Positions 21,411 through 62,909 of a DNA stretch of 64,000 nucleotides are shown here, piece by piece. Location: positions 51,762-115,761 of the forward strand of contig JARLIC010000137.1 of assembly GCA_031291905.1 (NCBI GenBank), given 5' to 3'. The notes below the pieces were generated by a model. The model ran no database searches. It was not told the origin of the DNA and saw nothing but the letters and a program-made list of their open reading frames with translations. The first letter of the stretch is position 1, and every line of letters begins with the position of its first letter. The stretch comes from Minisyncoccota bacterium (GTDB lineage: Bacteria > Patescibacteriota > Minisyncoccia > UBA6257 > 2-01-FULL-56-20). Both the position numbers and the translations under genes were made by a program.

Positions 21411-21691
21411 GTGACCAGCGATGCGGGGCGTGCAATCGATTCGGCGGTCTTCTCAGAAAGGATTACATGAGAGAAGACTATCCAGAGCCTTCTGAGAGAT
21501 TCAGCTTTGGGTACTGCCGAGCGATCAAACTCAATCGAATTCCCAATAGCAATGAACCCAGCGGCGAGCCGGATTGCCTCGCGTTCACAACCGACGTAGA
21601 AGACTATTCAGCAGCATTGATGGTTCGCCCCAATTTCGGCTGCGTCCTCTGGGAGCCTAAACGAACACCGGATCTTCCGGCTGCGGATTGA
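21407..21691 (+). CDS. small Cys-rich protein, paralog C
   Basis: ATGA overlap with paralog B. Sequence MSDQRCGACNRF...FGCVLWEPK. Confidence 0.55.
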   Translation: MSDQRCGACNRFGGLLRKDYMREDYPEPSERFSFGYCRAIKLNRIPNSNEPSGEPDCLAFTTDVEDYSAALMVRPNFGCVLWEPKRTPDLPAAD

Positions 21692-24690: not shown

Positions 24691-24843
24691 GGGGTTCTCC
24701 CGATGTTGTCGTGGGTGTTGACAACGCTCGGCGCGGCGAATCTCCAGTCCGCCGGGGAGTCCGCCGCATCTCGAAGACGGGTCGGGCCGGGAACCTGATT
24801 GCTCGTGCGCTGACACGAAACAAAAACGTGTATTAAGATGTCG

Positions 24844-28780: not shown

Positions 28781-29587
28781 TCAAGGAGCGACAATGAACT
28801 CTTCGCCGTCATCGCCAAGACGATACGTCAGGTGACAATGGCAATTTTGTCGGCACTGGCGATCGCCAATACTCCTGAGACTTCCGATCGGAACGAAGCC
28901 TCTCGCGGAGTCTTCCAGGCAGTCCCCGCAGTGTTCGGCTTCTCCAAGGACCAAGCGTTCCTGATCGAACACCATGTTCCTGGCGTACGTCGCTCGGGCG
29001 ATCTCTTGCGAGCAGCCCCAGGCGCAGGCACCGTAGGATTCGGCTCGGGCGATGAATTGATTAGCCGTGATCGGTGCGGGGAAGATGAAGACTTCCAGCG
29101 TCTTGTCCGGATTGAAGGGCTGGGGCCGAAGCATGTCGGCCTGGAAGCGATCGAGGTAGGCGTCTTGCGTTACGGCCTGGCGTTCGGCCTGCTGGAGTTC
29201 ATCACTGGTCAAGGCTCGCGGGCCGAGCAAGCCCATCGCACCGGCGACGATCGATTCGCGGACGAAGCCTTTTATCCGTTTGAAGAACCGGCCCGCTTGT
29301 TCACGTAGAGACCGCCCAACTTGCTCATCTTCGGCTGGGCCGAGAAGACTCCGGCCTTCGTTCCAGTCGAGCTGGCTCCTTGCGAACTGCTGGGCTTCAT
29401 GCTTAATCCACGCTTTGGAAAAAGCACGAATGGCTTCGAGAAGGCGAAGACGCTCATGCCCATCGAGTTGCCCCTTGTTGTAGCGTGCGGTCCAGCCGAG
29501 CTTTTTGAGGACGTGTGCGAGGATCGCTTCGGCCGAAGCCGGCTTGTTCGTCAGCCGCTTGCTTCCGAGGGAAGGTCCACGGACCAC
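28781..29587 (-). CDS. Mu F-like head morphogenesis protein
   Basis: Located directly after the portal gene. C-terminal H...CRQNCHCHL resembles the Mu F domain His/Cys motif. Confidence 0.55.
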   Translation of the reverse strand: MVRGPSLGSKRLTNKPASAEAILAHVLKKLGWTARYNKGQLDGHERLRLLEAIRAFSKAWIKHEAQQFARSQLDWNEGRSLLGPAEDEQVGRSLREQAGRFFKRIKGFVRESIVAGAMGLLGPRALTSDELQQAERQAVTQDAYLDRFQADMLRPQPFNPDKTLEVFIFPAPITANQFIARAESYGACAWGCSQEIARATYARNMVFDQERLVLGEAEHCGDCLEDSARGFVPIGSLRSIGDRQCRQNCHCHLTYRLGDDGEEFIVAP

Positions 29588-31209
29588 GGCAGGTGATCGA
29601 AAGGGTCGCGATCCTCACCCTCCGCTAATCCTTCGACTCCATGAAGCTCCGCATCCTCTTGATCGAGGCCGCCATAAGCACCGCGAAGGCCGTCAGTCCC
29701 GCCATGCTCAAGACTTCGATTGCGGCTTGCATTGGGCTTCTTCTTCTTGTCGTCGCCGCCCTTGGCTTTCGGCTTCTTCTTCACGTCCTTGTTGTTGACG
29801 GCCGGGTTCCCGCCGCCTTCGGCCATTCCGATCGCACCGGCGGTGGCCATCTTGATTGTAGCTTCATTCATCTTAACAATCATCGACAGCGGCGACATGG
29901 TGTTCGGAAGAATCGGCTCGTCCCCCCACGGCACCGGAGGGAGGCCGGTTTCGGCGTTCCTCTGGTTGATCGTGATGCTTCCGTTCCTCAGATCCATGTC
30001 GAATATCTTGGTTTCTTGCTCGCGATCGACCTTGAGCGGGTTGTCGAAAGCGAAGAACAGCCGCCGGTCCCATTGCTGGATCACCCGCGTCAACTTGCTT
30101 GCGATCGACATGCACCGGGGGCTGATCGCCTGCTCGGCGTGCATCTCCTTGGCGGCCTGGAGGTTCGCCAGGTTCGTGTCGGTGGAGAAGAACTCTATCG
30201 GCGTGCCCATCGCGGCGCACATCGCCTGCCAGTCGTACTCGGCGATCTTCAGGCCCGAGAGGTCGGTCGGCGCATAGGTCGTCGGCTGGAAGTTCCACAT
30301 CCCGGTCGTGACCAGGATGCCGCCCTGGCGAGAGCGGGCGTGCTTCATGTTCAGTTCTTGCTCGAACTTCAGCCGCTCGGCGTCGCCGGGCATCGCGTTC
30401 GCGTCGGCGGGCGATGCGATCAGGTTGGGACGAGGCCCTTGCGCCAGGAGTTGCTCCTGGACCGACACGAACTTGTCTTCGAGCTTGGCGTACTCGTAAG
30501 CGGCGTAGAGCGGCGGGTACGACGCTCCGTAAGGGTCTTTCAGGCTCACGCCGTGACCGAAGTAGACGATCTCGTCGGGCTCCAGTCGACTGGCGAAATA
30601 CTGGTAGTGCGACGGAATCGGGGTTCCGGCTGCGCGGACCGGGAGGACGTACTGGCTGAACAGCGGCCAGAATTCCGTGTACGGCCTGCCTTCCGGCCCC
30701 TTGGGGGCGAAGTAAGCACGGCCGATGATGTCGCTGTAGAGCGAGATCATTTTGAGGATGTAGACGAGATCGAACATCCCGTACGGATCGGGATTGTTGA
30801 GCGTGTGGAGAAACGGATGCTCGCGAATCTCTCGAATATTCGCGACGTTCGTTCCATTGCTGGGGACGTACCCCGCGTTCCGCATGTGGCAGAACTGCCG
30901 AAGCGAAACCTCTCGCGGGTCGGAGATGTCCTTCGGCTTCTTGCCGTTCGTCGAGTCCATGTACAACTTGAGCGGAACGGAACTGACGGCGTTCGCGTTG
31001 ATGACGGCACAACTGTAGGCGATCGACTTGAAGTGCTCGATCAACTCGACCGGCGAAGGGGCCGGCTTGGACCGCCACGCGTCCGTGGTCGACGGGCCGC
31101 CGATCCACCCGGTGCCGAGAGAGAATCCCCCAGGGGGTCCAGAGGAGCCTTTACGCTCGACACTGAACGCCGATGCGTCGGCCTGGAGTCTTTCGAGGAA
31201 GCTTGCCAA
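29551..31209 (-). CDS. portal protein
   Basis: 552 aa, located downstream of terminase. Acidic/basic C-terminal tail. Central HPFLHTLNNPDPYGMFDLVYILK segment. Confidence 0.7.
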   Translation of the reverse strand: MASFLERLQADASAFSVERKGSSGPPGGFSLGTGWIGGPSTTDAWRSKPAPSPVELIEHFKSIAYSCAVINANAVSSVPLKLYMDSTNGKKPKDISDPREVSLRQFCHMRNAGYVPSNGTNVANIREIREHPFLHTLNNPDPYGMFDLVYILKMISLYSDIIGRAYFAPKGPEGRPYTEFWPLFSQYVLPVRAAGTPIPSHYQYFASRLEPDEIVYFGHGVSLKDPYGASYPPLYAAYEYAKLEDKFVSVQEQLLAQGPRPNLIASPADANAMPGDAERLKFEQELNMKHARSRQGGILVTTGMWNFQPTTYAPTDLSGLKIAEYDWQAMCAAMGTPIEFFSTDTNLANLQAAKEMHAEQAISPRCMSIASKLTRVIQQWDRRLFFAFDNPLKVDREQETKIFDMDLRNGSITINQRNAETGLPPVPWGDEPILPNTMSPLSMIVKMNEATIKMATAGAIGMAEGGGNPAVNNKDVKKKPKAKGGDDKKKKPNASRNRSLEHGGTDGLRGAYGGLDQEDAELHGVEGLAEGEDRDPFDHLPWSVDLPSEASG

Positions 31210-32886: not shown

Positions 32887-33318
32887 TTAGGCGCCGACTT
32901 CGGTCCAGCGTTCGTCGTCCCAATCGCTCGTCATCGCCTCGTAGGTTCCGTCGTGCTGGGCCGGCGGCGGCGGCTGGATATTGTGCTTGGCCCCGTAGAT
33001 CGCCATCGCACGAACGACGAGCGGCGGCGGATTGCCGGTGGTCGCGGTCAGCGTGTCCCACCACTGGTGCGGGCCGTCTCCCTCGATCGCGACCTGGCGG
33101 CAGAAGTCGCACCGGAGGGCGGCCAGATCGTAGCGTCGCAGGAGTCGGGTTGATCGCTGTGTCGACCGGGTGCAGCGAGGGCAGGGGGGGCCGTCGTGCT
33201 TGATCACGACCTGGACTTCATCGTCCGGCACGTCGGCTTCGACGGCTTCAATAATGGCGTCTTCGGCATCGCGGGGCTTCGGGGGACGGCCGCGACGTTT
33301 GGTCTCGATCGTGCTCAT
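32887..33318 (-). CDS. basic zinc-ribbon protein (KRRGRPPKP; CPRC...CDFC)
   Basis: Overlaps the TerL stop by 4 nt. Confidence 0.45.
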   Translation of the reverse strand: MSTIETKRRGRPPKPRDAEDAIIEAVEADVPDDEVQVVIKHDGPPCPRCTRSTQRSTRLLRRYDLAALRCDFCRQVAIEGDGPHQWWDTLTATTGNPPPLVVRAMAIYGAKHNIQPPPPAQHDGTYEAMTSDWDDERWTEVGA

Positions 33319-35864
33319 GCTACCTCTATGTCCGTGTCATGCCACGAGTCGGGCCACCAGCGGGGGTCTTGCCAATCTTGCTGGGCGGCTCGATCTTTTT
33401 CGATCTTCTCCAGCCACGCCCGCTCCAGCCGTTCGCGTTCCATGCGTTCGCGTTCTTCGGGGGGGATGGCGGCTGGGCCACGCTTCTGGACTTCAAGAGA
33501 GGCGTAGGCGAGCACGTCGACTGTGTCGTCGTGGGCACCGTTAGGAAAGGTCATCAACTCGGTTTCGAGGTTGTCGAGTTCCGGGTGATGCTTGGGAAAC
33601 CAAATCTGACCGGCTTCCATGCGTATCTGGGCGTCTACGCTTCGGGCTATTTTATCGACGTTCCCGGTCTTGAGCGACTGGATCGTCAAGCCTTGCTTTC
33701 GAGCCGCTTTAATGACTAGGTTTTGCGCTGCAACATCTTCGATTCCACAATACGACGCCTTGTGCTTGTCCATCATCGCACGAATAGACGGGACGAGCTT
33801 ATCGCCGGTCATCTGTTCGCGATGCATGTCAAGAAGAATCAGGTCGCTGTCCGGCGTCACAGCCCACGCGCCGATGCATGTGTAGTCCGCACTGGTTCTT
33901 GTAGAAAATGCGAGGTCTACCGCCAGGAAAATTCGGCAGTGATCGAGGCTGAATGATCGTGTTTCAAGCCTGATGTAGTTTTCGTGCCGATCATAGTATT
34001 TGAAATCTGATCGCCGAAATAATCCACCACCCTCGGGGGAGGGGCGTTGCTGATACACAGAATTAAAAAGATGTTTTTGGGTTGCTTTGACACGAAGCAG
34101 GTATTCTTCGTTGAAGTGCTCGGGCCAGAGGGCTTCGCCTCGCTTGCGTCCCATCGGATCGTTATCTTCGGCCAAAGCCGGAAGATTATAGACGACCCAT
34201 TCCTCGCCCGTCTCTTTCGCTCGATCCAGGATCTTGCCGACCATGTCGGCTTCATGCCACCTCTGCATGACGACGACGATCGACCCACCGGGCTCAAGCC
34301 GCGTGTACGCGGTTCCGACGTACCAGTTCCAAGCCTTCTCGCGAAGCGTCTCGCTGAACGCATCCTCTTGCTTCTGGACGTCGTCAAGCACAAGTAGGTG
34401 CGCTCCCTTCCCGAGCAACGCGCCCCCCATGCCGACGGTCTGCATTCCGCCGCTGTGGCCCTTGAGCATCCAGCGATCGGCGGCCTTGCTATCCTGGCGG
34501 ATCTTGACTCCGAAGTATTTCTCGCCGTCCTCTTCGATCAGGTCGCGTACCTTGCGTCCCCACTCGGAAGCGAACTCAGCCTCATACGACGCCAGGATCA
34601 CTTTCTTGTCCGGGTTCCTCCCCAGATACCACGCCGGGAAGTACATCGACGTCATTGTGCTATTGCACGTCGGAATCATCGAGCGGCCACACAAAAACAT
34701 GTGGCTCGGTGAGTCGACTTCGATGCAAACAGTGTCGCCGGTTCCGACGTACGTGGCGCCGATGTATCGGTTCGGCTGCTTAACGCCGTCGCGACATCGC
34801 GGCGACTTCCGAGGCGACTTGCAGGCCCCTGCTTTATAGAACATGACGCGGAATTTGGGTCCGCAATCTTTTCCATAAAGCGTAGCTCTTCCAAGTATCA
34901 GGCTCGCCTTGGTTCCGAGTGAACGAACGAGTTCAAGGCAGCCTTCAGCCAATGCTAGGTCTGTCGAGCAAAACTCGACCTGGCCATCCGGAGCGACATG
35001 GCCATCCGTGTCGCAAAGCCCACGAAGCAACTCAAACCTTTGGCTCTCGCTCGCTCGCAGGTATTGGTTCGGGACATGCTTGTTCTTCAGCAGGCCGAGT
35101 TCGCGAAGCTTTCCGCCAAGGCCCATGACCCCAAATACGTTTTCGACCGACCGATCTCTCGTCTCGTAGCCGAGCCGCGAAAGTTCTTCCTTGAACCACT
35201 CAGTATCCAGGCCGTTGCACGTGATGCCGCAGTTCTCGGAGCAGCCGTTTCCAAGCCAAACACCGAGGACGTACGGGTCGATCGGCAAGTCGGCATCGGG
35301 AAGCTGAAGTGCCCCCTGCTTGCGGACCATAAGCCTCTTGTTTCGAGGCTTCGAGAGATAGGCGGTGTCTTTGACGTGGAATATATCGCGAGTCTTCGCC
35401 TTGCTGACGACCCACTCGTGATTTTGGTCGGCGAAGATTTCATCGCCGTCGTCGGTTGTTACTCGGTAGATCGGGCGGTTCTTCCAGACGGGAGACTTTG
35501 CCACAACGTTACAGGGCTGACCGTCTTCATTAAAGACCTGATCGCCCGGCTTCAGTTCCCCTATCGTCGTCCAGCCGGAAGGCGTCGGGATCGGGGTGCT
35601 CAGGGCTAAGGCTTTCCCGTGCCTCGGTGGCACCGTCACAATTAATCGTTTGATCCGGCCCTCCGCCACATCCATCATCTTCTGCGTCAAGAAGAGAAGA
35701 TGTTTCGCCGGCTTCCACTGAAATTCGCTCGAAAGATGTGCATAGTGCGCGGGGCTCAGGTTCGCTATATGCTTCTCTAGGCTGAATCGCTCCTGCGAGT
35801 TGAGTGAGGCCGCCAAGGAGCGTAAGGACTCGATCTGTTGCGGCGTCTCCATTGAGGTGATCAA
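33315..35864 (-). CDS. terminase large subunit interrupted by an intein
   Basis: N-terminal ATPase region runs through the Walker A up to VTVPPRHGK. It resumes as STMTSMYFPAWYLG.. after ~317 inserted residues. C-terminal RNase-H-like nuclease (FLAVDLAFS...DSDLILLD). Confidence 0.85.
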   Translation of the reverse strand: MITSMETPQQIESLRSLAASLNSQERFSLEKHIANLSPAHYAHLSSEFQWKPAKHLLFLTQKMMDVAEGRIKRLIVTVPPRHGKALALSTPIPTPSGWTTIGELKPGDQVFNEDGQPCNVVAKSPVWKNRPIYRVTTDDGDEIFADQNHEWVVSKAKTRDIFHVKDTAYLSKPRNKRLMVRKQGALQLPDADLPIDPYVLGVWLGNGCSENCGITCNGLDTEWFKEELSRLGYETRDRSVENVFGVMGLGGKLRELGLLKNKHVPNQYLRASESQRFELLRGLCDTDGHVAPDGQVEFCSTDLALAEGCLELVRSLGTKASLILGRATLYGKDCGPKFRVMFYKAGACKSPRKSPRCRDGVKQPNRYIGATYVGTGDTVCIEVDSPSHMFLCGRSMIPTCNSTMTSMYFPAWYLGRNPDKKVILASYEAEFASEWGRKVRDLIEEDGEKYFGVKIRQDSKAADRWMLKGHSGGMQTVGMGGALLGKGAHLLVLDDVQKQEDAFSETLREKAWNWYVGTAYTRLEPGGSIVVVMQRWHEADMVGKILDRAKETGEEWVVYNLPALAEDNDPMGRKRGEALWPEHFNEEYLLRVKATQKHLFNSVYQQRPSPEGGGLFRRSDFKYYDRHENYIRLETRSFSLDHCRIFLAVDLAFSTRTSADYTCIGAWAVTPDSDLILLDMHREQMTGDKLVPSIRAMMDKHKASYCGIEDVAAQNLVIKAARKQGLTIQSLKTGNVDKIARSVDAQIRMEAGQIWFPKHHPELDNLETELMTFPNGAHDDTVDVLAYASLEVQKRGPAAIPPEERERMERERLERAWLEKIEKDRAAQQDWQDPRWWPDSWHDTDIEVA
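34662..35612 (-). mobile_element. intein with LAGLIDADG homing endonuclease inserted in the terminase P-loop
   Basis: Hint N-blocks ALALSTPIPTPSGWTTIGELKPGDQVFNEDG and ..IFADQNHEWVV. Two LAGLIDADG motifs: YVLGVWLGNGCS and LLRGLCDTDGHV. C-terminal block ..VCIEVDSPSHMFLCGRSMIPTCN followed by S. Confidence 0.7.
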
Positions 35865-41040: not shown

Positions 41041-41349
41041 TTACTCAGTTCGCTCGATCGCCGCTATCGCCCACATCAGACATTGCTCAAGATTCGTCAG
41101 CGCCGATGACTGCTCACGCGACGCGGATGAGTGGTCGACGATGGACAAGGCGAGATTCTTGGCATCGTCCCGAAGTAACGCGAGAGGGATAACCTTGTCA
41201 GCCCGAACAGTGAGCTTTGCGGCGAACCGCTTCTCGACTTCTTCGCGGAATCGCTCGGCGCGAGTCTTTCCGTCATCGATATGAACAGCGTAGATGGGTG
41301 GCGGGTTATCTCTCACCGAACTTGGAGCCGGGTACACAGGGTTCATCAA
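41041..41349 (-). CDS. hypothetical protein
   Basis: ORF. Confidence 0.35.
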   Translation of the reverse strand: MMNPVYPAPSSVRDNPPPIYAVHIDDGKTRAERFREEVEKRFAAKLTVRADKVIPLALLRDDAKNLALSIVDHSSASREQSSALTNLEQCLMWAIAAIERTE

Positions 41350-41948
41350 AGCTCTCCTTCAAAAACCGATCCGCCGAAGTAGTCGATCACATCGAACTCA
41401 CGCGGGCGGGCGAACGGAATGTCGTCTTCCTGAAAAGCGTCCACCTCGGCCTGGCTGACAGGAACCGTTCGCCCCTGCCCACCCTGCCCGTTGTATCCGC
41501 CGCCGCCACGACCTTGCGGTGCGGGACCGCGACCCTGGGGAGGACCGCTGCGCGACTCGGCTTGCGGCTGGCGTTCGTTTCCGCCTTGGCTGCGCGGTCC
41601 GTCTTCGTCGCGAGCCTTAGCCTCAAGGTTCTGGACCCGGTCGGCGTTCACCTTGATTTTGCTCCGTTTCTCGCCGGTCGCCTTGTCGTCCCACTGGTCC
41701 ATCTTGAGCGAGCCTTCGACGAAGATCAGGTTGCCCTTGTGCAAGGTATTGCAGGCCCGCTCCGCCGCCGCACCCCAGACGGTCGCGTCGATATAGAGGA
41801 CTTCTTCCTTCCACTCGTCGTTCTTGTCCTTCCATGACCGATTGACGGCCATGCGGAGTTCGGTCACGGCCGATCCGCTTGGAATGCGGCGCAACTCGGG
41901 CTCGAAAGTCAGTCGGCCCATGAGTTGGACCTTATTTAAGTCAGCCAT
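41346..41948 (-). CDS. ssb: single-stranded DNA-binding protein
   Basis: N-terminal OB pattern MADLNKVQLMGRLTFEPELR..SGSAV..LRMAVNRSWKDK. Gly/Gln-rich tail ending EDDIPF plus ~20 extra residues. Confidence 0.8.
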   Translation of the reverse strand: MADLNKVQLMGRLTFEPELRRIPSGSAVTELRMAVNRSWKDKNDEWKEEVLYIDATVWGAAAERACNTLHKGNLIFVEGSLKMDQWDDKATGEKRSKIKVNADRVQNLEAKARDEDGPRSQGGNERQPQAESRSGPPQGRGPAPQGRGGGGYNGQGGQGRTVPVSQAEVDAFQEDDIPFARPREFDVIDYFGGSVFEGEL

Positions 41949-44970: not shown

Positions 44971-45255
44971 TCAGTCGTTGGCACTCTCGACGAGCGACAT
45001 TGACGCTTCGCCAGAAGACTCGTCTTCGGCTTGATCCTTGAATACGCCCTTCTTGCGTAAGTTGATAAGAGCGACGATGGCATCGTTCATTGTGCACGGA
45101 AAGTATTGGATCATATTGACCCAGAGAACTTCGTGCTCATAGGTACTGCCTATTTGGTCTGCCGACAAAGTGATTTCGCCTTCACTCTTTAAGCGCTTGT
45201 ACGTGGCCTCCAGAACTTCCTGGAAATCTTTTCTGTCACGGATTCTCACGATCAA
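44971..45255 (-). CDS. hypothetical protein
   Basis: ORF. Confidence 0.35.
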   Translation of the reverse strand: MIVRIRDRKDFQEVLEATYKRLKSEGEITLSADQIGSTYEHEVLWVNMIQYFPCTMNDAIVALINLRKKGVFKDQAEDESSGEASMSLVESAND

Positions 45256-46150
45256 CCTCCTCTAAGTAATCGATGCGCTGGCCGATCCACCGCATCATGG
45301 GAACTGGGAAAGAATTGCCGAGCACCGTCGTTCGCTGCTTGTCGCTCGCGGGGCGACCCTTATAAGTGACGCTCGTCCACTCATCCGGAAATCCCTGAAG
45401 CCTCTCCCACTCGATCGGCGTGAGCCGCCTTGTGATGCCGTCCCTGGCCACAAGCACTCCTTCGCCACCCTGACTTGCCCGAAGCGTCGGCGTCATTCCG
45501 ACGCAAGCTTTAGGGGTAGGGTCTCCGGTCCAACCGACGGGCTCCTTCCGAGTGCTTCCAGGAATTCGGGCGGCGCCGTCTTTCCGTATCGCGGAAACCT
45601 TGCCAGCATCTTGTCGATGGCCTCTGGCGTCAAAAAGTACCGCTGCGGCACGCTGCCATCGTCCTCCAGAATGTCCGACAACGAAGACGCGACGGCGTCG
45701 CTGGGGGACTCCGAAAGACTGGCAGTCCAGCACACGCCAGCACACGCCAAACCCGCACTCGGCCAGGATTTCAAGGAAGTTTCCGAAAGCCCTTCCGTTG
45801 TCGATGGACAGGATGCCAGGGACGTTTTCCCAGACGAACCATCGCGGGCGAAGAACCTCAAGAAGTCTTGCATAGTGCAGCGTGAGTCCGCCGCGATCGT
45901 CAGCCATGCCTTGTCGGCTTCCGACAATGGACCAACTTTGGCAAGGCGGTCCGCCAACGAGGACGTCGATCGGCCCATGTTCATCTCCGATGGTCGTCAT
46001 GTCGCCAAGGTTAGGAACGCTCGGATGCCGTTCAGCCAGCAACGCTGAAGCGAATGGGTCGATTTCAGAGAAAAAAGACGGCTTCCATCCCAGCGGTTCC
46101 CACGCCACCGTGGCGGCTTCTATCCCGCTGCACACACTGCCATAGATCAT
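45236..46150 (-). CDS. dcm: DNA (cytosine-5)-methyltransferase
   Basis: Motif I GSVCSGIEAA, motif IV GGPPCQSWS, ENV, QRRRRVFVVG and LGNSFPV are all present. Start MIYGSVC at 46150. Confidence 0.8.
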   Translation of the reverse strand: MIYGSVCSGIEAATVAWEPLGWKPSFFSEIDPFASALLAERHPSVPNLGDMTTIGDEHGPIDVLVGGPPCQSWSIVGSRQGMADDRGGLTLHYARLLEVLRPRWFVWENVPGILSIDNGRAFGNFLEILAECGFGVCWRVLDCQSFGVPQRRRRVFVVGHSGGRWQRAAAVLFDARGHRQDAGKVSAIRKDGAARIPGSTRKEPVGWTGDPTPKACVGMTPTLRASQGGEGVLVARDGITRRLTPIEWERLQGFPDEWTSVTYKGRPASDKQRTTVLGNSFPVPMMRWIGQRIDYLEEVDRENP

Positions 46151-46217
46151 CGTCGCTATCCCAATCCTGAATCGCCACGCAAGGTTCACGCGACTCGACG
46201 ATGTTGCTTTGCCATAA

Positions 46218-47329
46218 TTACTTATTGATCGGCATAACAACATACGTATAATTTTCGCCCGACCTGAACACCACCGCGTTCTTCGGGTCCAGCAAATCCA
46301 CCGTCAGGACCGTATCCATCTCCAGTGACCGCAACGCTTCGACGACGTACTGCGGGTCCATCGTCAGCGACATTCCATCCCCATCGAAGCCGCCCAGCAA
46401 AGGCAACTCGATGCACGATTGGCCGACGTCTGAGGCGTTGCTGGTCAACTCCACGCCATCGGACGAGAACTTGAACGTGACGCCCCGGCTTTCCTCGCTG
46501 GTCACGATCGAAGCCTGTTGCGTGGCCGACAAGAACGACGCCACGTCCAGCGGGATCGTGTACGTCGAGCTTTTGGGAAACACATCCTGATATCGCGGGA
46601 ACCGGCCTTCCACCAGCCGACTGTAGATCACGCTGTTCGACGACCGAACCACGACCGCAACGCCCTTAAGGAAGGCGACGTGAATCTGATCGCCGTCGCC
46701 GGACAGAGCCTTGTCGATCAGCTTCAGAGCTTTGACCGGAAGAACGCATTGCGAATCGTCCACGTCGCCGACCCGCTCAGCAGGAACCGTGGCTCGTGCC
46801 AGACGGCGGCCGTCGGTTCCGACGAACGAGACGCTGTCGTCCGCCCGTTCGACCAGGACGCCGCCGAGAGCGTATCGAGCCGAGTTCAGGTCGGTCGCAA
46901 AAGCCGTCCTCTTGATCAGCTTCTTCAAGTCCGAGTCGATCAGGACCATGTACGATTCGCTGTCAAACCCGGCTGGCTCGGGGAACAAACTTGGTTCTTC
47001 GTTCGGCAGGTTGAACCGTGACCGCTTGCCCCGGATCAGCAACTTGTCATCATCGGCTTCGATGCTGATCTCGTCGTCGATCGACGTCCGCAGGATTTGA
47101 CTGACGCGGTCGGTCGGCAGGATAACATGGCCGTCTCGATCGAACTTCACGCCAAGCAGCGTCCGCCGCACCCCGACTTCCAGATCCGTCGCGATCAATG
47201 TGCATTCGTCGTTGTCGATGACAAGTTTCACGTTTTGCAGGATCGGCTTGGGTGATCGAGCCGGCACGACGCTGGCGACCGTTGTAAACGCTTCGAGCAA
47301 GGCTTTTCGGTTGAACGTCGCTTTCAAGG
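46218..47329 (-). CDS. dnaN: DNA polymerase III beta subunit (sliding clamp)
   Basis: N-terminus KATFNRKALLEAFTTVASVVPARSPKPILQNVKL....LIATDLEV and C-terminal YTYVVMPINK are present. Likely TTG start at 47329 with GAGGTGG upstream. Confidence 0.8.
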
Positions 47330-48796: not shown

Positions 48797-48930
48797 GGGC
48801 TCCTCGATTGTCTTGCTTTCAAGCGTCCATCCTCAGCGAGCCCAATCCTACCGGGCGAACATTTGCATGTCAATGGAGAAAGCAAGAAATTTCACTTGCC
48901 ACTAAACAGGGCTTCATGAAGTGAAATCCG

Positions 48931-49304
48931 AGCCGTCGAGACCTTTCGACGGGGAGGGTTTCGCAAGACTCCTCCGCGTTCGGCTGGTCCCGGCCCCATC
49001 GCGAATAGTTGGAGCCCACACGCAGAAATGGCCCAGGATGCCCCAGGAGCGATCCGTGATGTCAAACTGATGGAATCTACCAACCTGGTCCCGGCGATCG
49101 CGTGGTGAGCCCAGGAGAGGCCTCCGAACGCAGGGGGTTGCGAGCCGGGCGACGGCGTCCCCCGCGAACCGATTTTCGGCCTCGCGTGATATACAAGAAA
49201 AACCGTCGGCCTCGTGCGAATTCGGAATTAGCTTGCGCAGTACAAGAACAAGCGTCGCTCAATCTGGATTGCGAGCCGTTCGCCGTCGAAAGGTCTCGAC
49301 GGCT
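48931..49304. promoter_or_regulatory. 22-bp perfect inverted repeat pair (48931-48952 / 49283-49304) bracketing ~330 bp of the divergent control region
   Basis: agccgtcgagacctttcgacgg versus its exact reverse complement. Confidence 0.5.
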
Positions 49305-49574
49305 CACGTCTCCCCTTAGAATTTGCATTCAGGTAAGAAGATTAGATATGGCTAAACCAAATACTAAAACCTAATCCTTCGGAGTCAAAAAGACAATACT
49401 TCGCACGGCCAGCGTGCCCGAACCTTCTTTATATAGGGAATCCATCAAAGATCGTGAATGCAAGCGGCCGATTGTCTTGCTTTGCTAAAAATCTTGCAAT
49501 CTGTCTTGACGTTCGGAATAAACGGCGGTAGGATCTGGCTCGGGCGACAAGAACGTTGGAATGGCAAGGAGAAC

Positions 49575-50741
49575 ATGCGAATGAGTGAGCTGATCGTGGA
49601 GGTGTGCGAAGTACTGGAAGTCCTGCCGCATGGGAATGCGGATCGGCTTGAGATCGTCACGGTGAAAAATTGGCCCGTGGTTGTCCAGAAGGGCCTTCTC
49701 AAGCAAGGCGATCCCGTCGTTTTCTTTCCGCCGGACAGCGTCTTGACCGAAGAACTGGCCGATCGGCTCGGCATCCGGAAGTACCTCGCCCCGGTCAAGA
49801 CCGGCGAATCCGTCACCGGCTATCGGGTCCGGGCCACTCGGCTTCGCGGTGTCGCCAGTTTCGGGACGATCGACCATGAGATCCCGGAAGGCTTCGCGGT
49901 CGGGGCCGACGTGGCGGAGCACTACGGCGTAACGAAGTGGGAGCCGCCGGCACGGGGTGGCGACAATTGGGCTGGCGGAGGGCTCAAGGGCAGCCAGTAT
50001 CGCGTCACCAATGCGGCGTTCCACCGATACAAGAGCATCAGCAATATTCGGCACAATCGCAATGCGTTCAAGGACGGCGAGATGGTCGTCCTCACGGAGA
50101 AGGTCCACGGCTCCAATATGAGGTCCGGCCTCATCAAGACGCCGTACGACCCCGGAACCGGCTTTATTGGTTTCTTGCGGCGGATTTACTGCCGGGTGTT
50201 CGGTTCGCCGGAGCCGACCTACGAGTTGATGGCCGGGAGCCACAACCTTCCTCGCGACGTCTATAGCGAAGACGGCAGCCTCACAGAGTACGCCCTCCCG
50301 ATCGGCGAACCGAACGTCGTCGGCCTGCTCAAGTACCTGAGCAACGGCGAGCACGACGTCATCCTGTTCAGCGAACTGTTCGGCAGCGGCGTCCAAGATA
50401 TGACGTATGGCCACAAGGACGGCAGTCGTGGCTTCCTGGCCTTCGACATCACGATCGACGGACGATATCTGGACGCGGTTGAGAAGTACGACCTGCTGTC
50501 CCGCTATCAGGTACCGACCGTCCCCGTGCTTTACACGGGACCCTTCTCATGGGATGTCGTCGAAGCCTATACCGATGGCCCGACCACGATCTGTGATCCC
50601 AAGGATGCCGGCCCGTTCAAGGGTCGCGAGGGCGTCGTCGTGACGTGCTTGACGGAGCCTCGGGACTATCCAGGCCGGAAGATTTACAAGTCGATTTCGG
50701 CGGATTATTTGGCCCGGAAGAATGCCACGGATTCCCACTGA
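49575..50741 (+). CDS. ATP-dependent RNA ligase (Rnl family) with N-terminal tRNA-binding-like OB domain
   Basis: N-terminus EVLEVLPHGNADRLEIV...GDPVVFFPPDSVL resembles the HPNADkL tRNA-binding domain. Ligase motif I LTEKVHGSN matches Rnl EKIHGTN. Later EGVVV and KIYK fit motifs IV and V. AAGGAGAAC upstream of the ATG. Confidence 0.65.
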   Translation: MRMSELIVEVCEVLEVLPHGNADRLEIVTVKNWPVVVQKGLLKQGDPVVFFPPDSVLTEELADRLGIRKYLAPVKTGESVTGYRVRATRLRGVASFGTIDHEIPEGFAVGADVAEHYGVTKWEPPARGGDNWAGGGLKGSQYRVTNAAFHRYKSISNIRHNRNAFKDGEMVVLTEKVHGSNMRSGLIKTPYDPGTGFIGFLRRIYCRVFGSPEPTYELMAGSHNLPRDVYSEDGSLTEYALPIGEPNVVGLLKYLSNGEHDVILFSELFGSGVQDMTYGHKDGSRGFLAFDITIDGRYLDAVEKYDLLSRYQVPTVPVLYTGPFSWDVVEAYTDGPTTICDPKDAGPFKGREGVVVTCLTEPRDYPGRKIYKSISADYLARKNATDSH

Positions 50742-50752
50742 GGAGGATCAAG

Positions 50753-51142
50753 ATGAGCGATAAGGCGAACGGCGGCTACGTGATCCCGGAGAATATCTTG
50801 AACATGATGGAATTCGGATTCTCCGGAGTCCACGAGAAGAAGCCCGTGGCCATGAGGCATGCTGAGGTCGACAAGGCTTTCCTCGCGGCCAAGAAGGCTT
50901 GTGCAGAACTGATCGAGGCCGAGAACGCCTATCTCGTGTCGCGGGGCTTCGTGATGGAGCTTGATCACGAGAAGGAGGTCGTCCGGTGGCGCGAACCCAA
51001 GGAGCATGGCGGCTCGCTTTGGGGGCGGCAGCAAGCCCTCGGGGTCGCATGCAGGAAAGAGCAGATGGCTAAATACGCAGCCGAGCAGGATATCGCGAAA
51101 CTCAAGGCTGAGCATGGGATTGAGGACGGGGGTGCGAAGTGA
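50753..51142 (+). CDS. hypothetical protein
   Basis: GGAGGA upstream of ATG at 50753. Confidence 0.4.
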   Translation: MSDKANGGYVIPENILNMMEFGFSGVHEKKPVAMRHAEVDKAFLAAKKACAELIEAENAYLVSRGFVMELDHEKEVVRWREPKEHGGSLWGRQQALGVACRKEQMAKYAAEQDIAKLKAEHGIEDGGAK

Positions 51143-51750
51143 GCGAACAAGCCAAAAGCAGCGACGCGCGATCCCCGCACACTGACGCCCTCGATACGCT
51201 CGGAAGCATCATTACAGAGAACGAAAAGCGAGACGCGATCCACCTGGCGGTTGAAAATGTCGTGGCGGCCCACGTTCTTCGGCCTGGAGAGCATGTCGGT
51301 TTCTGGGCTGTTGGGATAGTCGGGAGCAGTTCTAAGCCAGTTGGGATCGTCGATCCTTTCCTGAAGACGGCCGTCAATGAAGGCGAGCACTTCTGGCTGA
51401 TCGTCTACCCTCGCCAGATCACGTCGCTTCGTCACGTCTGGACGCACCCGGCGTTTCCTGACGCATCGGAGCTGAAGACGCAGGAGGTCGCGATTCAACG
51501 CGAAGTCGATCCCGTTGCGGAGTCACGGCGGTGGATCGATAACTTCGCCGCGTCAATCGATCAAACGACCAATCGGCTGATGGAGGCGGCTGCCACTTGG
51601 ATCAATGACCGCGAGTTCACGTACGACAACAGCCGAGCCTATAGTGACTTTCAGCACAAGTTCCCGGAGTTCTGGGGCCACTATGAAGTCGTGACTGGGG
51701 CGAAGGTTGAAGAGGACGATCGCGAGAGGTTCTTTACGTGTGGCTGCTAA
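51139..51750 (+). CDS. hypothetical protein
   Basis: GTGA-coupled start. Confidence 0.4.
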   Translation: MSEQAKSSDARSPHTDALDTLGSIITENEKRDAIHLAVENVVAAHVLRPGEHVGFWAVGIVGSSSKPVGIVDPFLKTAVNEGEHFWLIVYPRQITSLRHVWTHPAFPDASELKTQEVAIQREVDPVAESRRWIDNFAASIDQTTNRLMEAAATWINDREFTYDNSRAYSDFQHKFPEFWGHYEVVTGAKVEEDDRERFFTCGC

Positions 51751-51763
51751 GGGAGGAAGCGAA

Positions 51764-52207
51764 ATGAATCGTCGTATCTTTGGAAAGAAATCAACAGGTT
51801 GGCTTGCGGCGTTCGGGGCTGTGCTTGGCGTGAAGACGGCACAGGCCCATGAGCCTTTCGGCCTGAAGGCGACGGGCCAACTAGAGACGATGGGCTACTG
51901 GAAAACCAAGCCGGATAATCCTGCCAGCACCGATCGGTATGGAATTTACATCAAGTTGGATAGTCCAGTTATCCAAGATGACGGAACCAAGTTGGATGAT
52001 TTCATCCTCCATATTTCAGAGTGCCGCAGGGCGTGGCATCTAAAATACAGAGTGACGAGTGCGGATGGAGTCATCTCGAAACAGTCAATCCATTGCGATC
52101 AACGCAATGCTATTCACGTCAATCGGAAGGGCTTGGATCAAATCCAGATTGGGACGGCTGCAATTTTCTTGCCGCCGAAGTACGAGGAGACGTCTTCATG
52201 TCCATGA
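51764..52207 (+). CDS. Tat-signal secreted protein, paralog 1
   Basis: MNRRIFGKKSTGWLAAFGAVLGVKTAQA signal. GGGAGGAAG upstream. Confidence 0.55.
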   Translation: MNRRIFGKKSTGWLAAFGAVLGVKTAQAHEPFGLKATGQLETMGYWKTKPDNPASTDRYGIYIKLDSPVIQDDGTKLDDFILHISECRRAWHLKYRVTSADGVISKQSIHCDQRNAIHVNRKGLDQIQIGTAAIFLPPKYEETSSCP

Positions 52208-52632
52208 ATCTGAATCGCCGCGCCTTCAGCAAGAAATCAGCCGGAGCATTCGGAGCCGTCCTCGCAGCCCTGGGCGTGAAGACGGCGACGGCGGAGAAGC
52301 TGTCGACGCCGATGGCTGGTGGTCGGCTGGAGACGGTGGGCTATTGGACCCACGAAACCTGCAAGCCCGATGTCGATCCATTGCCGGCCGTGCATCTCCA
52401 TGGTCAGGATTGGCCCGCTGGGTCCAAACGGCTCCACGTGCAATCCAGGGTGGCCAAGCTAAATCACAGCTATACGGCCGCATGGAAAGGCAAGCCACAA
52501 ATGAAGTGCACCAATTGGGCCGTCGTTCGCGTGTACCTGAACCGCGATGGAACAGAGACGTACGAGTTTGTCCCGGCCGATGGTCAGTCTGAATTGCTTC
52601 GCAAGAATGAGCCGATCGGCACCTTTTCCTGA
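52198..52632 (+). CDS. Tat-signal secreted protein, paralog 2
   Basis: MSMNLNRRAFSKKSAGAFGAVLAALGVKTATA signal. Shares the RLETVGYW motif with paralog 1. Confidence 0.55.
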   Translation: MSMNLNRRAFSKKSAGAFGAVLAALGVKTATAEKLSTPMAGGRLETVGYWTHETCKPDVDPLPAVHLHGQDWPAGSKRLHVQSRVAKLNHSYTAAWKGKPQMKCTNWAVVRVYLNRDGTETYEFVPADGQSELLRKNEPIGTFS

Positions 52633-52642
52633 AAGGACCACC

Positions 52643-52981
52643 ATGAACCGGCGTGACTTCGTTGGCAAGGCGGCTGGGGCTTCGGCCCTGGCTGCTACTG
52701 GCGGAATGGCAAAGGCTGACGTAGTCGAGCCGCCGGCAGAGGTTTGCAAACTTCGGCACACGGCCGAAGATGGGCCGCCGTGCGTGAGGATCAAGGTGCT
52801 CGGGGTCACGAAAATCTATGACATGAGCGCCACGAGCTGGAATAGCGATCACCCCGGCTCCAAATGGGAATGCGAGTACGAGTTGACTCGGATCGACGGC
52901 AGCACGGTAATCAGAACCGCGAACACGGTTCAACTGGGCAGCGACAAGCAGCCCAAATCCTTTGGATTCGACCTCTCTTGA
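52643..52981 (+). CDS. Tat-signal secreted protein 3
   Basis: MNRRDFVGKAAGASALAATGGMAKA signal. Confidence 0.5.
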   Translation: MNRRDFVGKAAGASALAATGGMAKADVVEPPAEVCKLRHTAEDGPPCVRIKVLGVTKIYDMSATSWNSDHPGSKWECEYELTRIDGSTVIRTANTVQLGSDKQPKSFGFDLS

Positions 52982-53595: not shown

Positions 53596-54225
53596 ATGAG
53601 TGGGCGGCCTTTTATCAGGAGTGCCATATTGAGGTATGTGAGCATCGATATCGAGACGACGGGATTGAATCCGGAGACGGATCAGATCCTTGAGTTCGGA
53701 GCCGTGATCGACGACACGCTGAGGCCAGATGTTCCGGTTGAGGAACTGCCGACGTTCCGCAAGGTAATCCGGAGCGACCGGCTATCCGGGACGCCAATGG
53801 CAATCGCCATCAACGCGAGCCTGATCAACTTCATTGCTTCCGTGGAAAAGCCGGAAGAGAACGAATTGTTCTGCCTTCCTAAAGATCTTGGCTTCGAGTT
53901 CTTCGTTTGGCTTCGAGGTCATGGATTCAAGATCAAGAACAACTCGAATGCGGCCTTTGTGCCAGCAGGAAAGAACTACGCCGGATTCGATTCCAGGTTC
54001 CTAAATAAGATCCCCCACTGGAATACGTATCTGACTCCATGCCATCGCACGCTCGACCCCGCCATCCTCTACTTCGATCCCCTGAAGGACGAGAAGCCGC
54101 CGAGCCTTTACGAATGCCTGGAGCGGGCTGGGTTCGACGCTACGGTGAAGCACACGGCCGTCGACGACGCACGTGATGTGGTGCGACTTCTTAGGCATAA
54201 GTTTGCGGAGGTGTCTGGTGGCTGA
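53596..54225 (+). CDS. DEDD-family 3'-5' exonuclease
   Basis: Exo I motif YVSIDIETTGL and Exo III motif HTAVDDARDVVRLL. Confidence 0.7.
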   Translation: MSGRPFIRSAILRYVSIDIETTGLNPETDQILEFGAVIDDTLRPDVPVEELPTFRKVIRSDRLSGTPMAIAINASLINFIASVEKPEENELFCLPKDLGFEFFVWLRGHGFKIKNNSNAAFVPAGKNYAGFDSRFLNKIPHWNTYLTPCHRTLDPAILYFDPLKDEKPPSLYECLERAGFDATVKHTAVDDARDVVRLLRHKFAEVSGG

Positions 54226-58881: not shown

Positions 58882-59496
58882 ATGGCCGCAAAGACCACCA
58901 GGATCAAGAGGCTGACCAAGAAGAAGAAGGATGAGGCTGCGAAGAACGTCCCGTTGGCCAAGCACATCGCGAAGAAAATGGGATGGCGAGATCTTCCGAT
59001 GGAGGATCAGATCCAAGAGGCGTCCGTCGGCCTGTGCAAAGCGGTGAACGGATTCGATCCATCCAGGGGAACGAAGCTGAGCACCATGATCGGCCGATGT
59101 GCGATGAACGAGATCTTGTCTGCGAGGCGGAAGTACGGTTTGATCCGGATACCAGACTACCTCCAAGAGAAAGCGAACGCCGAACACGGCCTCCAGAAGC
59201 ACGTCAAACAGGCCGGAAAGCGGCTCAGTATCGACGGGATATCGGAGGACTCGGAATTTCATCCAAGGTGCCCCGAAGACGACGACTCCGAGTTCGGCTG
59301 GAAGGCGATGCGGGCGGTTCGATGGGCCGTCCAGAAGCTTCCGCCGATCGAGCGGGACGTGATTCGCGGGCTGATGTTCCGCCAGGAAACAGCCCGCGAA
59401 CTGGGCAAGAAGCACGGCGTCCACGTCTCGGTGGTGCGTCACCTGAAAGACACAGCCTTGGCGAAGTTGCGAGCGAGTTTGGTTAAGCACGTGTAA
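58882..59496 (+). CDS. sigma-70 family sigma factor
   Basis: Region 2: PMEDQIQEASVGLCKAVNGFDPSRGTKLSTMIGRCAMNEI. Region 4: IERDVIRGLMFRQETARELG...VSVVRHLKDTALAKLR. Confidence 0.75.
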   Translation: MAAKTTRIKRLTKKKKDEAAKNVPLAKHIAKKMGWRDLPMEDQIQEASVGLCKAVNGFDPSRGTKLSTMIGRCAMNEILSARRKYGLIRIPDYLQEKANAEHGLQKHVKQAGKRLSIDGISEDSEFHPRCPEDDDSEFGWKAMRAVRWAVQKLPPIERDVIRGLMFRQETARELGKKHGVHVSVVRHLKDTALAKLRASLVKHV

Positions 59497-59511: not shown

Positions 59512-60072
59512 ATGGCCAAAAAGAAGCCGACCGCGAAAGGATTGATTCCCTTTGACCTGCCATTGAATGAGGAACAAAAAGAACTGGCGGCGTCGTGCGA
59601 GAGGATGGTGGTGAACATAGCGAAGAAGTCGGCGAATCGGAACAACAACTTCGACGACCTGATCGACGCCGGGCAGATGGGCCTCATACGAGCCGCCCAG
59701 ACATACGACGAGGCGAAAGGTGCGTTTTCGACGCACGCGTATCGGTGGATTTTAGCGAAAGTGCTGAGAGCAAGACATGAGCTAAACAAGAACAACGCCA
59801 GAAAGGATTACGCATTCGACGTGCGGAATCTTCCGTCTCGCCCGGCCGAAGACACCTGGTTTGACCCAGATGTCGTATTGCAAGCCTTCGACTCCCTTCC
59901 CAGGCAACTTCAGGACGTTGTTCGACTCAGGGTCTGGGATGACGACGCCAAGAAGCTGGATAAGGTCGCCAGGCGGCTGGGCTGCGTAAAACAAACGGTC
60001 TTAACCCGCCAAGCCAAGGCGTTCGGAATCCTCCGCGACACGCTCTGGCGATACGCACGGGAGGCTTCATGA
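59512..60072 (+). CDS. sigma-70 family sigma factor (second, adjacent)
   Basis: Region 2: FDDLIDAGQMGLIRAAQTYDEAKGAFSTHAYRWI. Region 4: LQDVVRLRVWDDDAKKLDKVARRLGCVKQTVLTRQAKAFGILR. Confidence 0.75.
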   Translation: MAKKKPTAKGLIPFDLPLNEEQKELAASCERMVVNIAKKSANRNNNFDDLIDAGQMGLIRAAQTYDEAKGAFSTHAYRWILAKVLRARHELNKNNARKDYAFDVRNLPSRPAEDTWFDPDVVLQAFDSLPRQLQDVVRLRVWDDDAKKLDKVARRLGCVKQTVLTRQAKAFGILRDTLWRYAREAS

Positions 60073-61774: not shown

Positions 61775-61965
61775 CCACCGGCATCACCAAGGCTGCCCTG
61801 GATCAACTGCCGCCCTTCGAGGCTTGGGTGATCAAACGCCGGCTTGTCGACAAAGAGAACTCGTGGAGGCGACTGGAATCTGAATGCGGTCTAGCCGTCT
61901 ACCGTTTAAAGCAGATCGAGCGTGAGGCTTTACTGAAGTTGTTTAATCCCGAGGGACAAGTATGA
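61771..61965 (+). CDS. small sigma-region-4-like HTH protein
   Basis: ECGLAVYRLKQIEREALLKL resembles a region 4.2 helix-turn-helix. Confidence 0.35.
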   Translation: MTTGITKAALDQLPPFEAWVIKRRLVDKENSWRRLESECGLAVYRLKQIEREALLKLFNPEGQV

Positions 61966-62909
61966 CCCGCCCCCCGATCCCGCTTCTTGCCCCGAACGTC
62001 ACTTGCGGCTTCCCGTATTTCGATCCCGACGTCTTCGAGACAGGCTTGGGCGTCCAGTATTTCAAGGAAGCCGGCGTCGCACTGATCTCGCGTCCTAACG
62101 TGAATATCGCGGCGGCTGCCGGGTTCCTGGACAGCTTTGACGACAGCCTTGGGTTTCGCGAGTACCTGTTCGACCCCGTGAATATCGACGACGGGGCGCA
62201 AGCGGCCAAGTACGCGGGACAGGGGTGCTATCAAAGCTATAGTGCGAAGAGGACCTGGAACAAGGACGCCGGAAGGTATCTCGACCACATCAAGGAGTTA
62301 GGTCACGGCTCCGTTCTTGAAGCGGCCAGTTATGGGTTCCAGTTCTGGGGAGTCGACCGAGCACTTACGCATGAGTTGGTCCGGCACCGGATGCTCAGTT
62401 TTTCACAGACATCGCAACGTTTCTGCGATGACAAAGCGTTGCGATTTGTTGAGAGGCCGGAGTATCAGCCCGAAAGATTGCCGGACGACGCGGGCGACGA
62501 ACTTAAGAGAGATGTCGCGTGGGCAGACACGAAGTTTCAGCAGATCATTAATAGTTTCGTGAGTCATTACGAATTATCCGCCGAGAATCTTGGCTCCGCT
62601 CGCGACCACGGCCATCCGCTGCTTCAAGGCGGCTCGGCGACCGAGAAGCGTAAGCATCTCAATCAGGTCGCGAGAGAATGCCTTCCCAATTGTTGCGAGG
62701 CCCCGATCGTCGTCACCGGCAACGCGAGGGCTTGGCGCGGATTCCTGGACCAGCGAGCCACGCCGCACGCCGACGTGCCGATCCGCGAGTTGGCCATCAA
62801 GGTTCTGAAAGCGTTATTGGTGACGAGTCCATTGTTGTTCGGCGACTATGAGATCGCGAAGCAGGATGATGGAACCGAGGCCGCTACGACCGCCTACCGC
62901 AAGGTCTGA
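61962..62909 (+). CDS. thyX: flavin-dependent thymidylate synthase
   Basis: ThyX signature RHRMLSFSQTSQR (RHRxxxxxxxSxR). Confidence 0.8.
   Translation: MTRPPIPLLAPNVTCGFPYFDPDVFETGLGVQYFKEAGVALISRPNVNIAAAAGFLDSFDDSLGFREYLFDPVNIDDGAQAAKYAGQGCYQSYSAKRTWNKDAGRYLDHIKELGHGSVLEAASYGFQFWGVDRALTHELVRHRMLSFSQTSQRFCDDKALRFVERPEYQPERLPDDAGDELKRDVAWADTKFQQIINSFVSHYELSAENLGSARDHGHPLLQGGSATEKRKHLNQVARECLPNCCEAPIVVTGNARAWRGFLDQRATPHADVPIRELAIKVLKALLVTSPLLFGDYEIAKQDDGTEAATTAYRKV

Follow-up and report, generated by a model that had tools for sequence, protein, structure and literature searches.

A probable Rnl5-family RNA ligase gene beside a divergent promoter pair in phage DNA filed under a Candidatus Pacebacteria genome

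A stretch of 64,000 nucleotides of contig JARLIC010000137.1 (positions 51,762 to 115,761 of the forward strand, hereafter the window) contains on its plus strand an open reading frame (ORF) ending at 50741, which very probably encodes an ATP-dependent RNA ligase of the Rnl5 family (the DraRnl/NgrRnl type). Judged by its likeness to characterised enzymes, the protein appears to be catalytically intact. The 119,133-bp contig, on which the public protein MDR3582625.1 is encoded, is filed under a 'Candidatus Pacebacteria/Paceibacterota' metagenome-assembled genome (MAG) and carries genes for capsid, portal, terminase and tail proteins, with a GC content of 55-66%. The window consists of phage DNA, and the contig has probably been binned into the wrong MAG.

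Family assignment and domain layout

The assignment of the 386-residue product was obtained from several searches. Pfam recognized an OB-fold domain of the PHA02142 type (PF21189, amino acids (aa) 9-98, 43 bits) followed by an RNA_ligase domain (PF09414, aa 171-372, 60 bits), both above the gathering cut-off of 27 bits, and returned no DNA-ligase or capping-enzyme match for the protein. PHROG 968, annotated 'RNA ligase', covers the protein from end to end (E = 9e-40), and the top NCBIfam model was TIGR02306, which describes the Deinococcus DRB0094/DraRnl family (E = 2e-36), while the Rnl2 model TIGR02307 reached only 15.6 bits against a cut-off of 197 bits. The sole significant match among PDB sequences was the Naegleria gruberi RNA ligase NgrRnl (E = 9e-13). 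When a profile of 68 homologues was used, the alignment with NgrRnl spanned both domains (E = 6e-28) and T4 Rnl2 came second (3.5e-6).

Structure comparison gave the same picture. An AlphaFold model based on the 68-homologue alignment displayed two domains and a linker, with a local confidence (pLDDT) of 92.5 and a predicted template-modelling score (pTM) of 0.89. In a Foldseek search of the PDB, NgrRnl structures filled ranks 1-13 (best E = 2e-21), followed by T4 Rnl2 (1e-7), REL1 and Rnl3 enzymes, and DNA ligases appeared only near E = 3e-3; every RNA ligase family outranked the DNA ligases and capping enzymes. The Pfam, PHROG, profile and structure matches thus bear out the preliminary description of this DNA, which had proposed an Rnl-type RNA ligase from the sequence and had named DNA ligases or capping enzymes as the structural matches that would contradict it; the closest ones are NgrRnl and then T4 Rnl2. 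The same description had drawn attention to the joining of an OB domain to the ligase, which we do not regard as special: an N-terminal OB domain followed by a C-terminal nucleotidyltransferase domain is the layout that defines Rnl5 (PMC4408790) and not a new fusion.

The sequence motifs of the nucleotidyltransferase domain (Table 1) are well preserved. In motif I, the predicted nucleophile K174 and H176 are found in all 68 homologues and G177 in 67 of them, and the pattern is identical to 163-TEKLHG-168 of DraRnl, where T163, K165, H167 and G168 are essential (PMC1807946). The KVHG sequence was at first taken as an anomaly, being Rnl2-like rather than Rnl5-like, an objection that was dropped since DraRnl itself has TEKLHG (PMC1807946). 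Motif IIIa resembles 277-YEGPFDEAT of DraRnl with its aromatic F281, and the distance from the motif IV glutamate to the motif V lysine is 20 aa compared with 21 aa in DraRnl (E305 to K326; PMC1807946). In the candidate motif Ia, S220 is invariant, the following residue is His in 46/68 and Asn in 17/68 homologues, and R225 is present in 64/68. The OB residues D52, R82 and K119, whose counterparts in NgrRnl and DraRnl engage a second metal and the gamma-phosphate of ATP, are kept in 67-68 of the 68 sequences. The protein ends 36 aa past motif IV and carries neither a C-terminal appendage nor an OB or latch domain at that end.

Between motifs I and Ia lies an insertion of ~20 aa, whose predicted helix has the sequence GFIGFLRRIYCRVFG. 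Among the aligned homologues it was found only in P0001-P0006, and it is common to the five closest relatives of the query, which share 65-72% identity with it. At the same site (~aa 186-214) the match to other family members is interrupted, and those proteins are longer, which suggests larger insertions at this position; we read the insertion as a variable loop and not as a new domain. A different kind of insertion was observed in P0127, a metagenomic protein of 747 aa with 65% identity to the query, in which ~360 aa are placed within motif I, between TEKIHG and SNDRVGLI. This insert ends with VHN before a Ser and contains the LAGLIDADG-like sequence LAFWFMDDG, features that make an intein very likely; several further members of the family, with lengths of 680-720 aa, may be of the same kind.

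As the start of the gene, ATG 49581 is the best candidate. It was preferred over the in-frame ATG located 6 nt earlier at 49575 (MRMSELIV...), which is less likely, because of the spacing of the AAGGAG sequence, the conserved N-terminus (MSxLIVEVC is almost invariant among the 68 aligned homologues), the length of 386 aa shared by the identical public protein MDR3582625.1 and by metagenomic gene calls, and the comparison with the related phage contig L002, where no in-frame ATG is found upstream of the ligase start. Of the gene at 49575-50741 given in the preliminary description, the ORF and its end are therefore confirmed, while the start was probably set 6 nt too early; the strings KVHGSN and PHGNADRLEIV quoted there were both found.

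Predicted mechanism, repair partners and possible roles

A reaction path can be proposed from homology to the characterised enzymes DraRnl and NgrRnl. K174 would attack ATP to form ligase-AMP, a step in which the OB domain, through D52 and K119, would help to place the pyrophosphate leaving group. The AMP would then be passed to the 5'-phosphate at a nick, and attack by a ribonucleotide 3'-OH would seal the nick in an RNA:RNA or RNA:DNA duplex. Characterised Rnl5 enzymes seal nicks with a 3'-OH on RNA and a 5'-PO4 in duplexes (PMC4408790, PMC7261155). The family works by way of ligase-AMP and prefers Mn2+.

The N-terminal domain superposes on tRNA-binding OB folds, namely those of PheRS-beta B2, MetRS-C, CsaA and EMAP II, and the CsaA/EMAP/MetRS-like domain recognized in the preliminary description is thus right at the level of the fold. 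In the structural comparison, which gives its figures without a label, the matches were the putative tRNA-binding protein 3bu2 (10.3), the PheRS beta subunit (10.0), MetRS-C (7.6), CsaA (7.4), an EMAP II-like domain (6.5) and Arc1p-C (6.5). To our knowledge, tRNA binding has been demonstrated for no member of the Rnl5 family. The likeness of the DraRnl OB domain to that of PheRS has been reported (PMC1807946), and the OB/tRNA-synthetase likeness of the family, in print since 2004-2007, is already known. In Rnl5 enzymes the OB domain acts in ligase adenylylation; its deletion cripples adenylylation and not the sealing of a pre-adenylylated nick (PMC4408790, PMC7261155), and the OB domain of NgrRnl contacts the gamma-phosphate of ATP as well as the metal during this step (PMC7261155).

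The search for repair partners covered ~82 kb of the ~119-kb contig, that is, the window together with 9.4 kb to its right (L004) and 8.9 kb to its left (L091), and was based on Pfam scans of ~50 ORFs of the window and flanks, PHROG scans of neighbours and precomputed Pfam labels of gene calls. Among these ORFs and labels, no match to a polynucleotide kinase, HAD, 2H, RtcB, Thg1 or nucleotidyltransferase family was obtained, and the kinase-phosphatase partner whose search the preliminary description had suggested was not found. A tRNA scan detected no tRNA gene, a six-frame scan no Walker-A motif in a plausible reading frame, and tblastn searches no homologue in the phage of four proteins from other viral ligase loci, namely the L008 kinase and the Thg1-like enzyme, NAPRTase-like protein and second ligase of L010. 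The inspected 82 kb also showed no DNA ligase. One ORF of 445 aa (1956-3293, minus strand) displays the metallophosphoesterase motifs SDHFH, GNHD and GHFHG, with a Pfam Metallophos match (E = 0.012) that is missed at a threshold of 1e-3. As a candidate healing phosphoesterase it was rejected: it matches PHROG 704, 'DNA repair exonuclease' (SbcD/Mre11-like), with E = 4e-75 and is located 46 kb away.

Other viral loci have such neighbours. A 235-aa P-loop kinase of the AAA_33 family lies directly upstream of the ligase in L008 (7273-7980) and in L009, and in L010 (3093-6443) a Thg1-like enzyme, a NAPRTase-like protein and a second, stand-alone protein with an RNA_ligase domain come after the ligase. 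These three loci look like RNA-repair cassettes around Rnl5, and phage repair modules of such a kind have already been described in general terms (PMC7824862). The families encoded within 3 kb of the ligase were counted at 84 viral loci. DNA ligase was the most frequent (13/84), followed by an unannotated 157-aa family (12/84), GT41-like proteins (11/84), PD-(D/E)XK nucleases, helix-turn-helix proteins and an unannotated 161-aa family (10/84 each), Thg1 and NT5C (8/84 each), NUDIX (7/84), and AAA_33 kinase and ribonucleotide reductase (5/84 each). Phage Rnl5 genes are therefore found mostly amid genes of DNA and nucleotide metabolism and, in a minority, amid RNA-repair genes.

Several observations weigh against an intact Rnl5 enzyme. 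The TIGR02306 score of 125.8 bits, obtained in a two-part match, lies below the equivalog cut-off of 151.15 bits, which is a threshold of the model and not a property defining the Rnl5 family; a shortfall of this kind fits the insertion and divergence, and relatives at ~50% identity are labelled TIGR02306 by JGI. DraRnl has S185-K186 in motif Ia, and with a His after S220 in the query K186 is left without an obvious counterpart. The equivalents of NgrRnl R4 and R149 are not conserved in the clade (in NgrRnl, R4A is well tolerated and R149A keeps 15% of nick sealing; PMC7261155), and the query alone among the 68 homologues has a Ser at the otherwise conserved E154. This unique E154S, the His in motif Ia, the sub-threshold score and the additional insertion could be the marks of a decayed ligase homologue kept for a non-catalytic role. 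We consider this very improbable, given that the nucleophile is intact, as are all the residues that bind metal and phosphate, that the model is confident, and that the occurrence of the insertion in the five closest relatives argues for selection. That the protein is instead a DNA ligase or an mRNA capping enzyme is scarcely credible in view of the structural ranking, the Pfam results, the lack of a C-terminal OB or latch domain, and a motif I of the form KxHG (Rnl2/Rnl5 type), not KxDG (PMC1807946).

As to function, our analysis points to the stand-alone sealing of 3'-OH/5'-PO4 nicks as the most likely role, the nicks lying either in structured RNA or, with a ribonucleotide end, in phage DNA that is being replicated. 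The functions of Rnl5 ligases have been called 'uncharted' in the literature; the only physiological role shown is recovery from DNA breaks in Deinococcus, probably at ribonucleotide-terminated nicks (PMC5397189). A heal-and-seal tRNA pathway like that of T4 is not favoured. The preliminary description had proposed tRNA repair of this kind, with the OB domain binding tRNA and with a T4 Rnl1/Pnkp-like system resealing anticodon loops cleaved by host anticodon nucleases. This proposal seems unlikely to us, and T4-style repair of anticodon breaks is unsupported here because the ~82 kb yielded no gene for a kinase-phosphatase, RtcB, Thg1 or a tRNA. The ends left by anticodon nucleases of the PrrC/colicin type, 2',3'-cyclic phosphate and 5'-OH, cannot be joined unaided by an Rnl5-class ligase, and the lack of healing enzymes for such ends accordingly disfavours the proposal. 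It also agrees poorly with the known activity of Rnl5 enzymes on duplex nicks, where the OB domain promotes adenylylation (PMC4408790, PMC7261155), and with the location of the gene among DNA- and nucleotide-metabolism genes at most viral loci.

A role on the DNA side, similar to that of DraRnl, is possible, and we put it forward tentatively. In this case the enzyme would serve phage replication, recombination or repair by sealing nicks with a ribonucleotide 3' end, such as ribo-patches or RNA-DNA junctions. Loss of DraRnl delays genome reassembly after irradiation, for which its authors proposed the sealing of ribo-nicks (PMC5397189), and the ligase gene lies near genes for a beta clamp, SSB, an RNase_T-type exonuclease, YqaJ and DnaB. 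The frequency of DNA ligase genes at the viral loci and their absence from the 82 kb inspected point in the same direction. On the other hand, direct evidence for such a role comes from no phage, the inspected part amounts to ~82 of 119 kb, and some relatives adjoin RNA-repair genes instead. Rather speculative, and to our minds quite improbable, is the idea that this planctomycete-like phage clade uses its Rnl5 ligase as a stand-alone, immediately expressed counter-defence enzyme, with the basic amphipathic helix after motif I and an OB domain that recognizes tRNA or structured RNA, to reseal 3'-OH/5'-PO4 breaks made by metal-dependent host nucleases. Such an enzyme would need no kinase-phosphatase partner because, as we infer, these nucleases leave 3'-OH/5'-PO4 ends.

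Control region and phage context

The phage genes are for the most part oriented leftward as far as 48796 and rightward starting with the ligase at 49581. The intervening 785 bp (48797-49580) contain no called gene, and the ORFs within them have a low GC content at third codon positions. A divergent pair of sigma-70-like promoters was identified in this region, one directed towards the ligase and its partner towards the leftward block. The pattern TTGACN-N16-18-TAGGAT, which describes both, has exactly two matches in 64 kb compared with 0.01 expected. The pair also flanks the ligase in L002, where the ligase is 67% identical, and it is found in L007 (ligase 65% identical) with 1-2 mismatches, one of them in the ligase-side promoter, and with a small ORF before the ligase. 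The ligase is thus promoter-proximal in three related phages (the query, L002 and L007).

From the promoter position, transcription of the ligase gene would start near 49541, and synthesis of the enzyme probably falls at the beginning of infection. An early unit is suggested because a host-type promoter precedes it and phage sigma factors are encoded downstream; the adjacent pair of sigma-70-family genes suggests that host RNA polymerase is redirected by the phage once the early phase is over. The preliminary description had placed the gene first in an early plus-strand block after the control region. Its position as the first plus-strand gene, behind a conserved promoter, holds, whereas 'early' is inferred only from the promoter consensus.

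The spacer of ~630 bp between the two promoters, which has no called gene, shows further features. An inverted repeat of 37 nt (48930-48966 and 49269-49305) is 86% complementary, and each of its arms is itself a hairpin. The hairpin near 49282-49303, which follows TTGCGAGCC, is kept in L002 and L007 according to the alignment, and changes in its stem preserve pairing (GTCGA..TCGAC versus GTCGGG..CCCGAC). The cumulative GC skew has a local minimum in the spacer. Neither the window as a whole nor the control region gave an Rfam match. It may be that the spacer serves as an origin or an operator, or encodes a small RNA.

The remaining genes with recognizable functions are listed in Table 1; YqaJ and DnaB are encoded just left of the window. 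In the large terminase, a LAGLIDADG_3 match (aa 275-322) lies upstream of Terminase_6N (402-622), which may reflect either an intein or a homing endonuclease fused to the protein. The structural region also contains genes for a 549-aa S-adenosylmethionine-dependent methyltransferase (19020-20669, plus strand) and a family-2 glycosyltransferase (21657-22622, minus strand). The second gene after the ligase (51139-51750, plus strand) encodes a 203-aa protein ending in ...FFTCGC, which belongs to PHROG 11912 (E = 1e-70), a widespread phage family of unknown function; L002, compared by size only, has no ORF of comparable size beside its ligase. Three small tandem ORFs follow in the ligase operon (51764-52207, 52198-52632 and 52643-52981, plus strand), for which no Pfam or PHROG match was obtained. 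Their products start with MNRR-x-F-x-KK/GK...G-A-x-A and have hydrophobic stretches; these starts resemble twin-arginine signal peptides, and the three may be paralogous secreted proteins. At ~1.4-5.5 kb past the right end of the window, in an otherwise early-looking rightward block, a 1381-aa protein is encoded (L004 11370-15515) that has no Pfam match and a weak match to a PHROG 'tail protein' (E = 3e-15).

Table 1. Features of the ligase gene, its control region and the surrounding phage genes (window coordinates)
Feature	Position	Strand	Remark
Probable Rnl5-family RNA ligase gene	49581-50741	+	386 aa plus stop
Shine-Dalgarno AAGGAG	49567-49572	+	Read from sequence; 8 nt before ATG 49581, only 2 nt before ATG 49575
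N-terminal OB domain, Rnl5 signature module	49581-49955 (aa 1-125)	+	D52, R82, K119 = NgrRnl D53, DraRnl R79, NgrRnl K121
PHGNADRLEIV	49626-49658 (aa 16-26)	+	Read from sequence
Gly-rich interdomain linker	49956-50015 (aa ~126-145)	+	pLDDT <50 at aa 128-138
C-terminal nucleotidyltransferase (adenylyltransferase) domain	50016-50738	+	
Motif I TEKVHG	50094-50111 (aa 172-177)	+	K174, predicted AMP-accepting lysine
KVHGSN	50100-50117 (aa 174-179)	+	Read from sequence
Clade-specific ~20-aa insertion between motifs I and Ia	50148-50213 (aa ~190-211)	+	Predicted helix 194-207
Candidate motif Ia S220-H221...R225	50238-50255	+	Assigned by position only
Motif III ILFSELFG (E265)	50361-50384	+	Invariant; aligns with NgrRnl E227; DraRnl E230
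Motif IIIa YTGPFSWD (F322)	50532-50555	+	G320 invariant; position 322 F or Y in 68/68
Motif IV REGVVV (R349, E350)	50625-50642	+	Invariant; as DraRnl EGVVV; E350 aligns with NgrRnl E312
Motif V IYKS (K370)	50682-50693	+	Invariant
Sigma-70-like promoter TTGACG-17 nt-TAGGAT	49506-49534	+	Ends ~47 nt before ligase ATG
Partner promoter TTGACA-17-TAGGAT	48845-48873	-	Divergent pair; leftward block
Tail-completion domain	10901-12454		
HK97-type capsid genes, adjacent Phage_capsid paralogues	23191-24816, 24844-25884	-	541 and 346 aa
Portal	29551-31209		
Large terminase	33315-35864	-	849 aa
SSB	41346-41948		
C5 methylase	45236-46243		
Beta clamp	46218-47327		
RNase_T-type exonuclease	53629-54225		
Two adjacent sigma-70-family (region 2/4) genes	58882-59496, 59512-60072	+	Rightward block; same pair in L002
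ThyX	61962-62909		

Relatives and comparison with known ligases

Homologues of the ligase are numerous. A word-indexed search, in which scoring was limited to 8000 candidates, returned at least 1337, and a full scan of 1.84 billion cluster representatives (50%-identity clusters) returned 5581 at E<=1e-3, a number that falls to 2784 at E<=1e-10 and to 548 at E<=1e-30. A homologue is present in 71 GenBank phage records, mostly annotated 'RNA ligase' and with an identity of <=31.5%, and on 326 IMG/VR contigs. The nearest relatives are found on uncultured contigs and in planctomycete genomes. The nearest named cellular homologue (51% identity) is that of the planctomycete Singulisphaera sp. PoT, in which the gene is flanked by a peptidase gene and a sigma-factor gene and stands by itself, with no repair operon at the locus inspected. 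From this homologue one may guess at a planctomycete as host of the phage.

The literature already covers Rnl5 ligases and their occurrence in phages, as well as their N-terminal OB domain with its likeness to synthetase OB folds. The query is a divergent further member of a known large family, and what goes beyond the textbook, namely the clade insertion, the conserved promoter-proximal position and the missing partner, is minor. The analysis does correct the context of annotation, a 'Candidatus Pacebacteria' MAG contig being phage, and adds a case of an Rnl5 gene as the promoter-proximal first gene in three related phages. The repeated occurrence of Thg1 and kinase genes beside the ligase in other phages could guide the choice of systems for testing phage Rnl5 function.

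Compared with NgrRnl, the prototype structure of Rnl5 (PDB 5COT/5COU), the query shares ~22% identity, has KVHG in place of KLDG in motif I, and is 46 aa longer, with the helix of ~20 aa inserted after motif I. It resembles DraRnl in TEKxHG, EGVVV, GPF, the spacing of the motif V lysine, the OB arginine, the length class and the domain order (PMC1807946), and differs from it in being borne by a phage and in having no known radiation-repair context. Among phages, the 'RNA ligase' genes of the Caulobacter phage CcrColossus and the Pseudomonas phage KIL (PHROG 968) have the same architecture, and Aeromonas phage 44RR2.8t has also been cited as a carrier of an Rnl5 homologue (PMC1807946). T4 Rnl2 and the kinetoplastid REL1 have a C-terminal helical domain and no N-terminal OB domain, whereas the query has no such C-terminal domain. 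In ATP-dependent DNA ligases and capping enzymes, the nucleotidyltransferase domain precedes a C-terminal OB domain and motif I is KxDG, in contrast to the query's N-terminal OB domain and KVHG. Finally, the OB fold class of Trbp111, CsaA, EMAP II, MetRS-C and PheRS-beta B2 is shared with the query, in which the OB domain is joined to a ligase.

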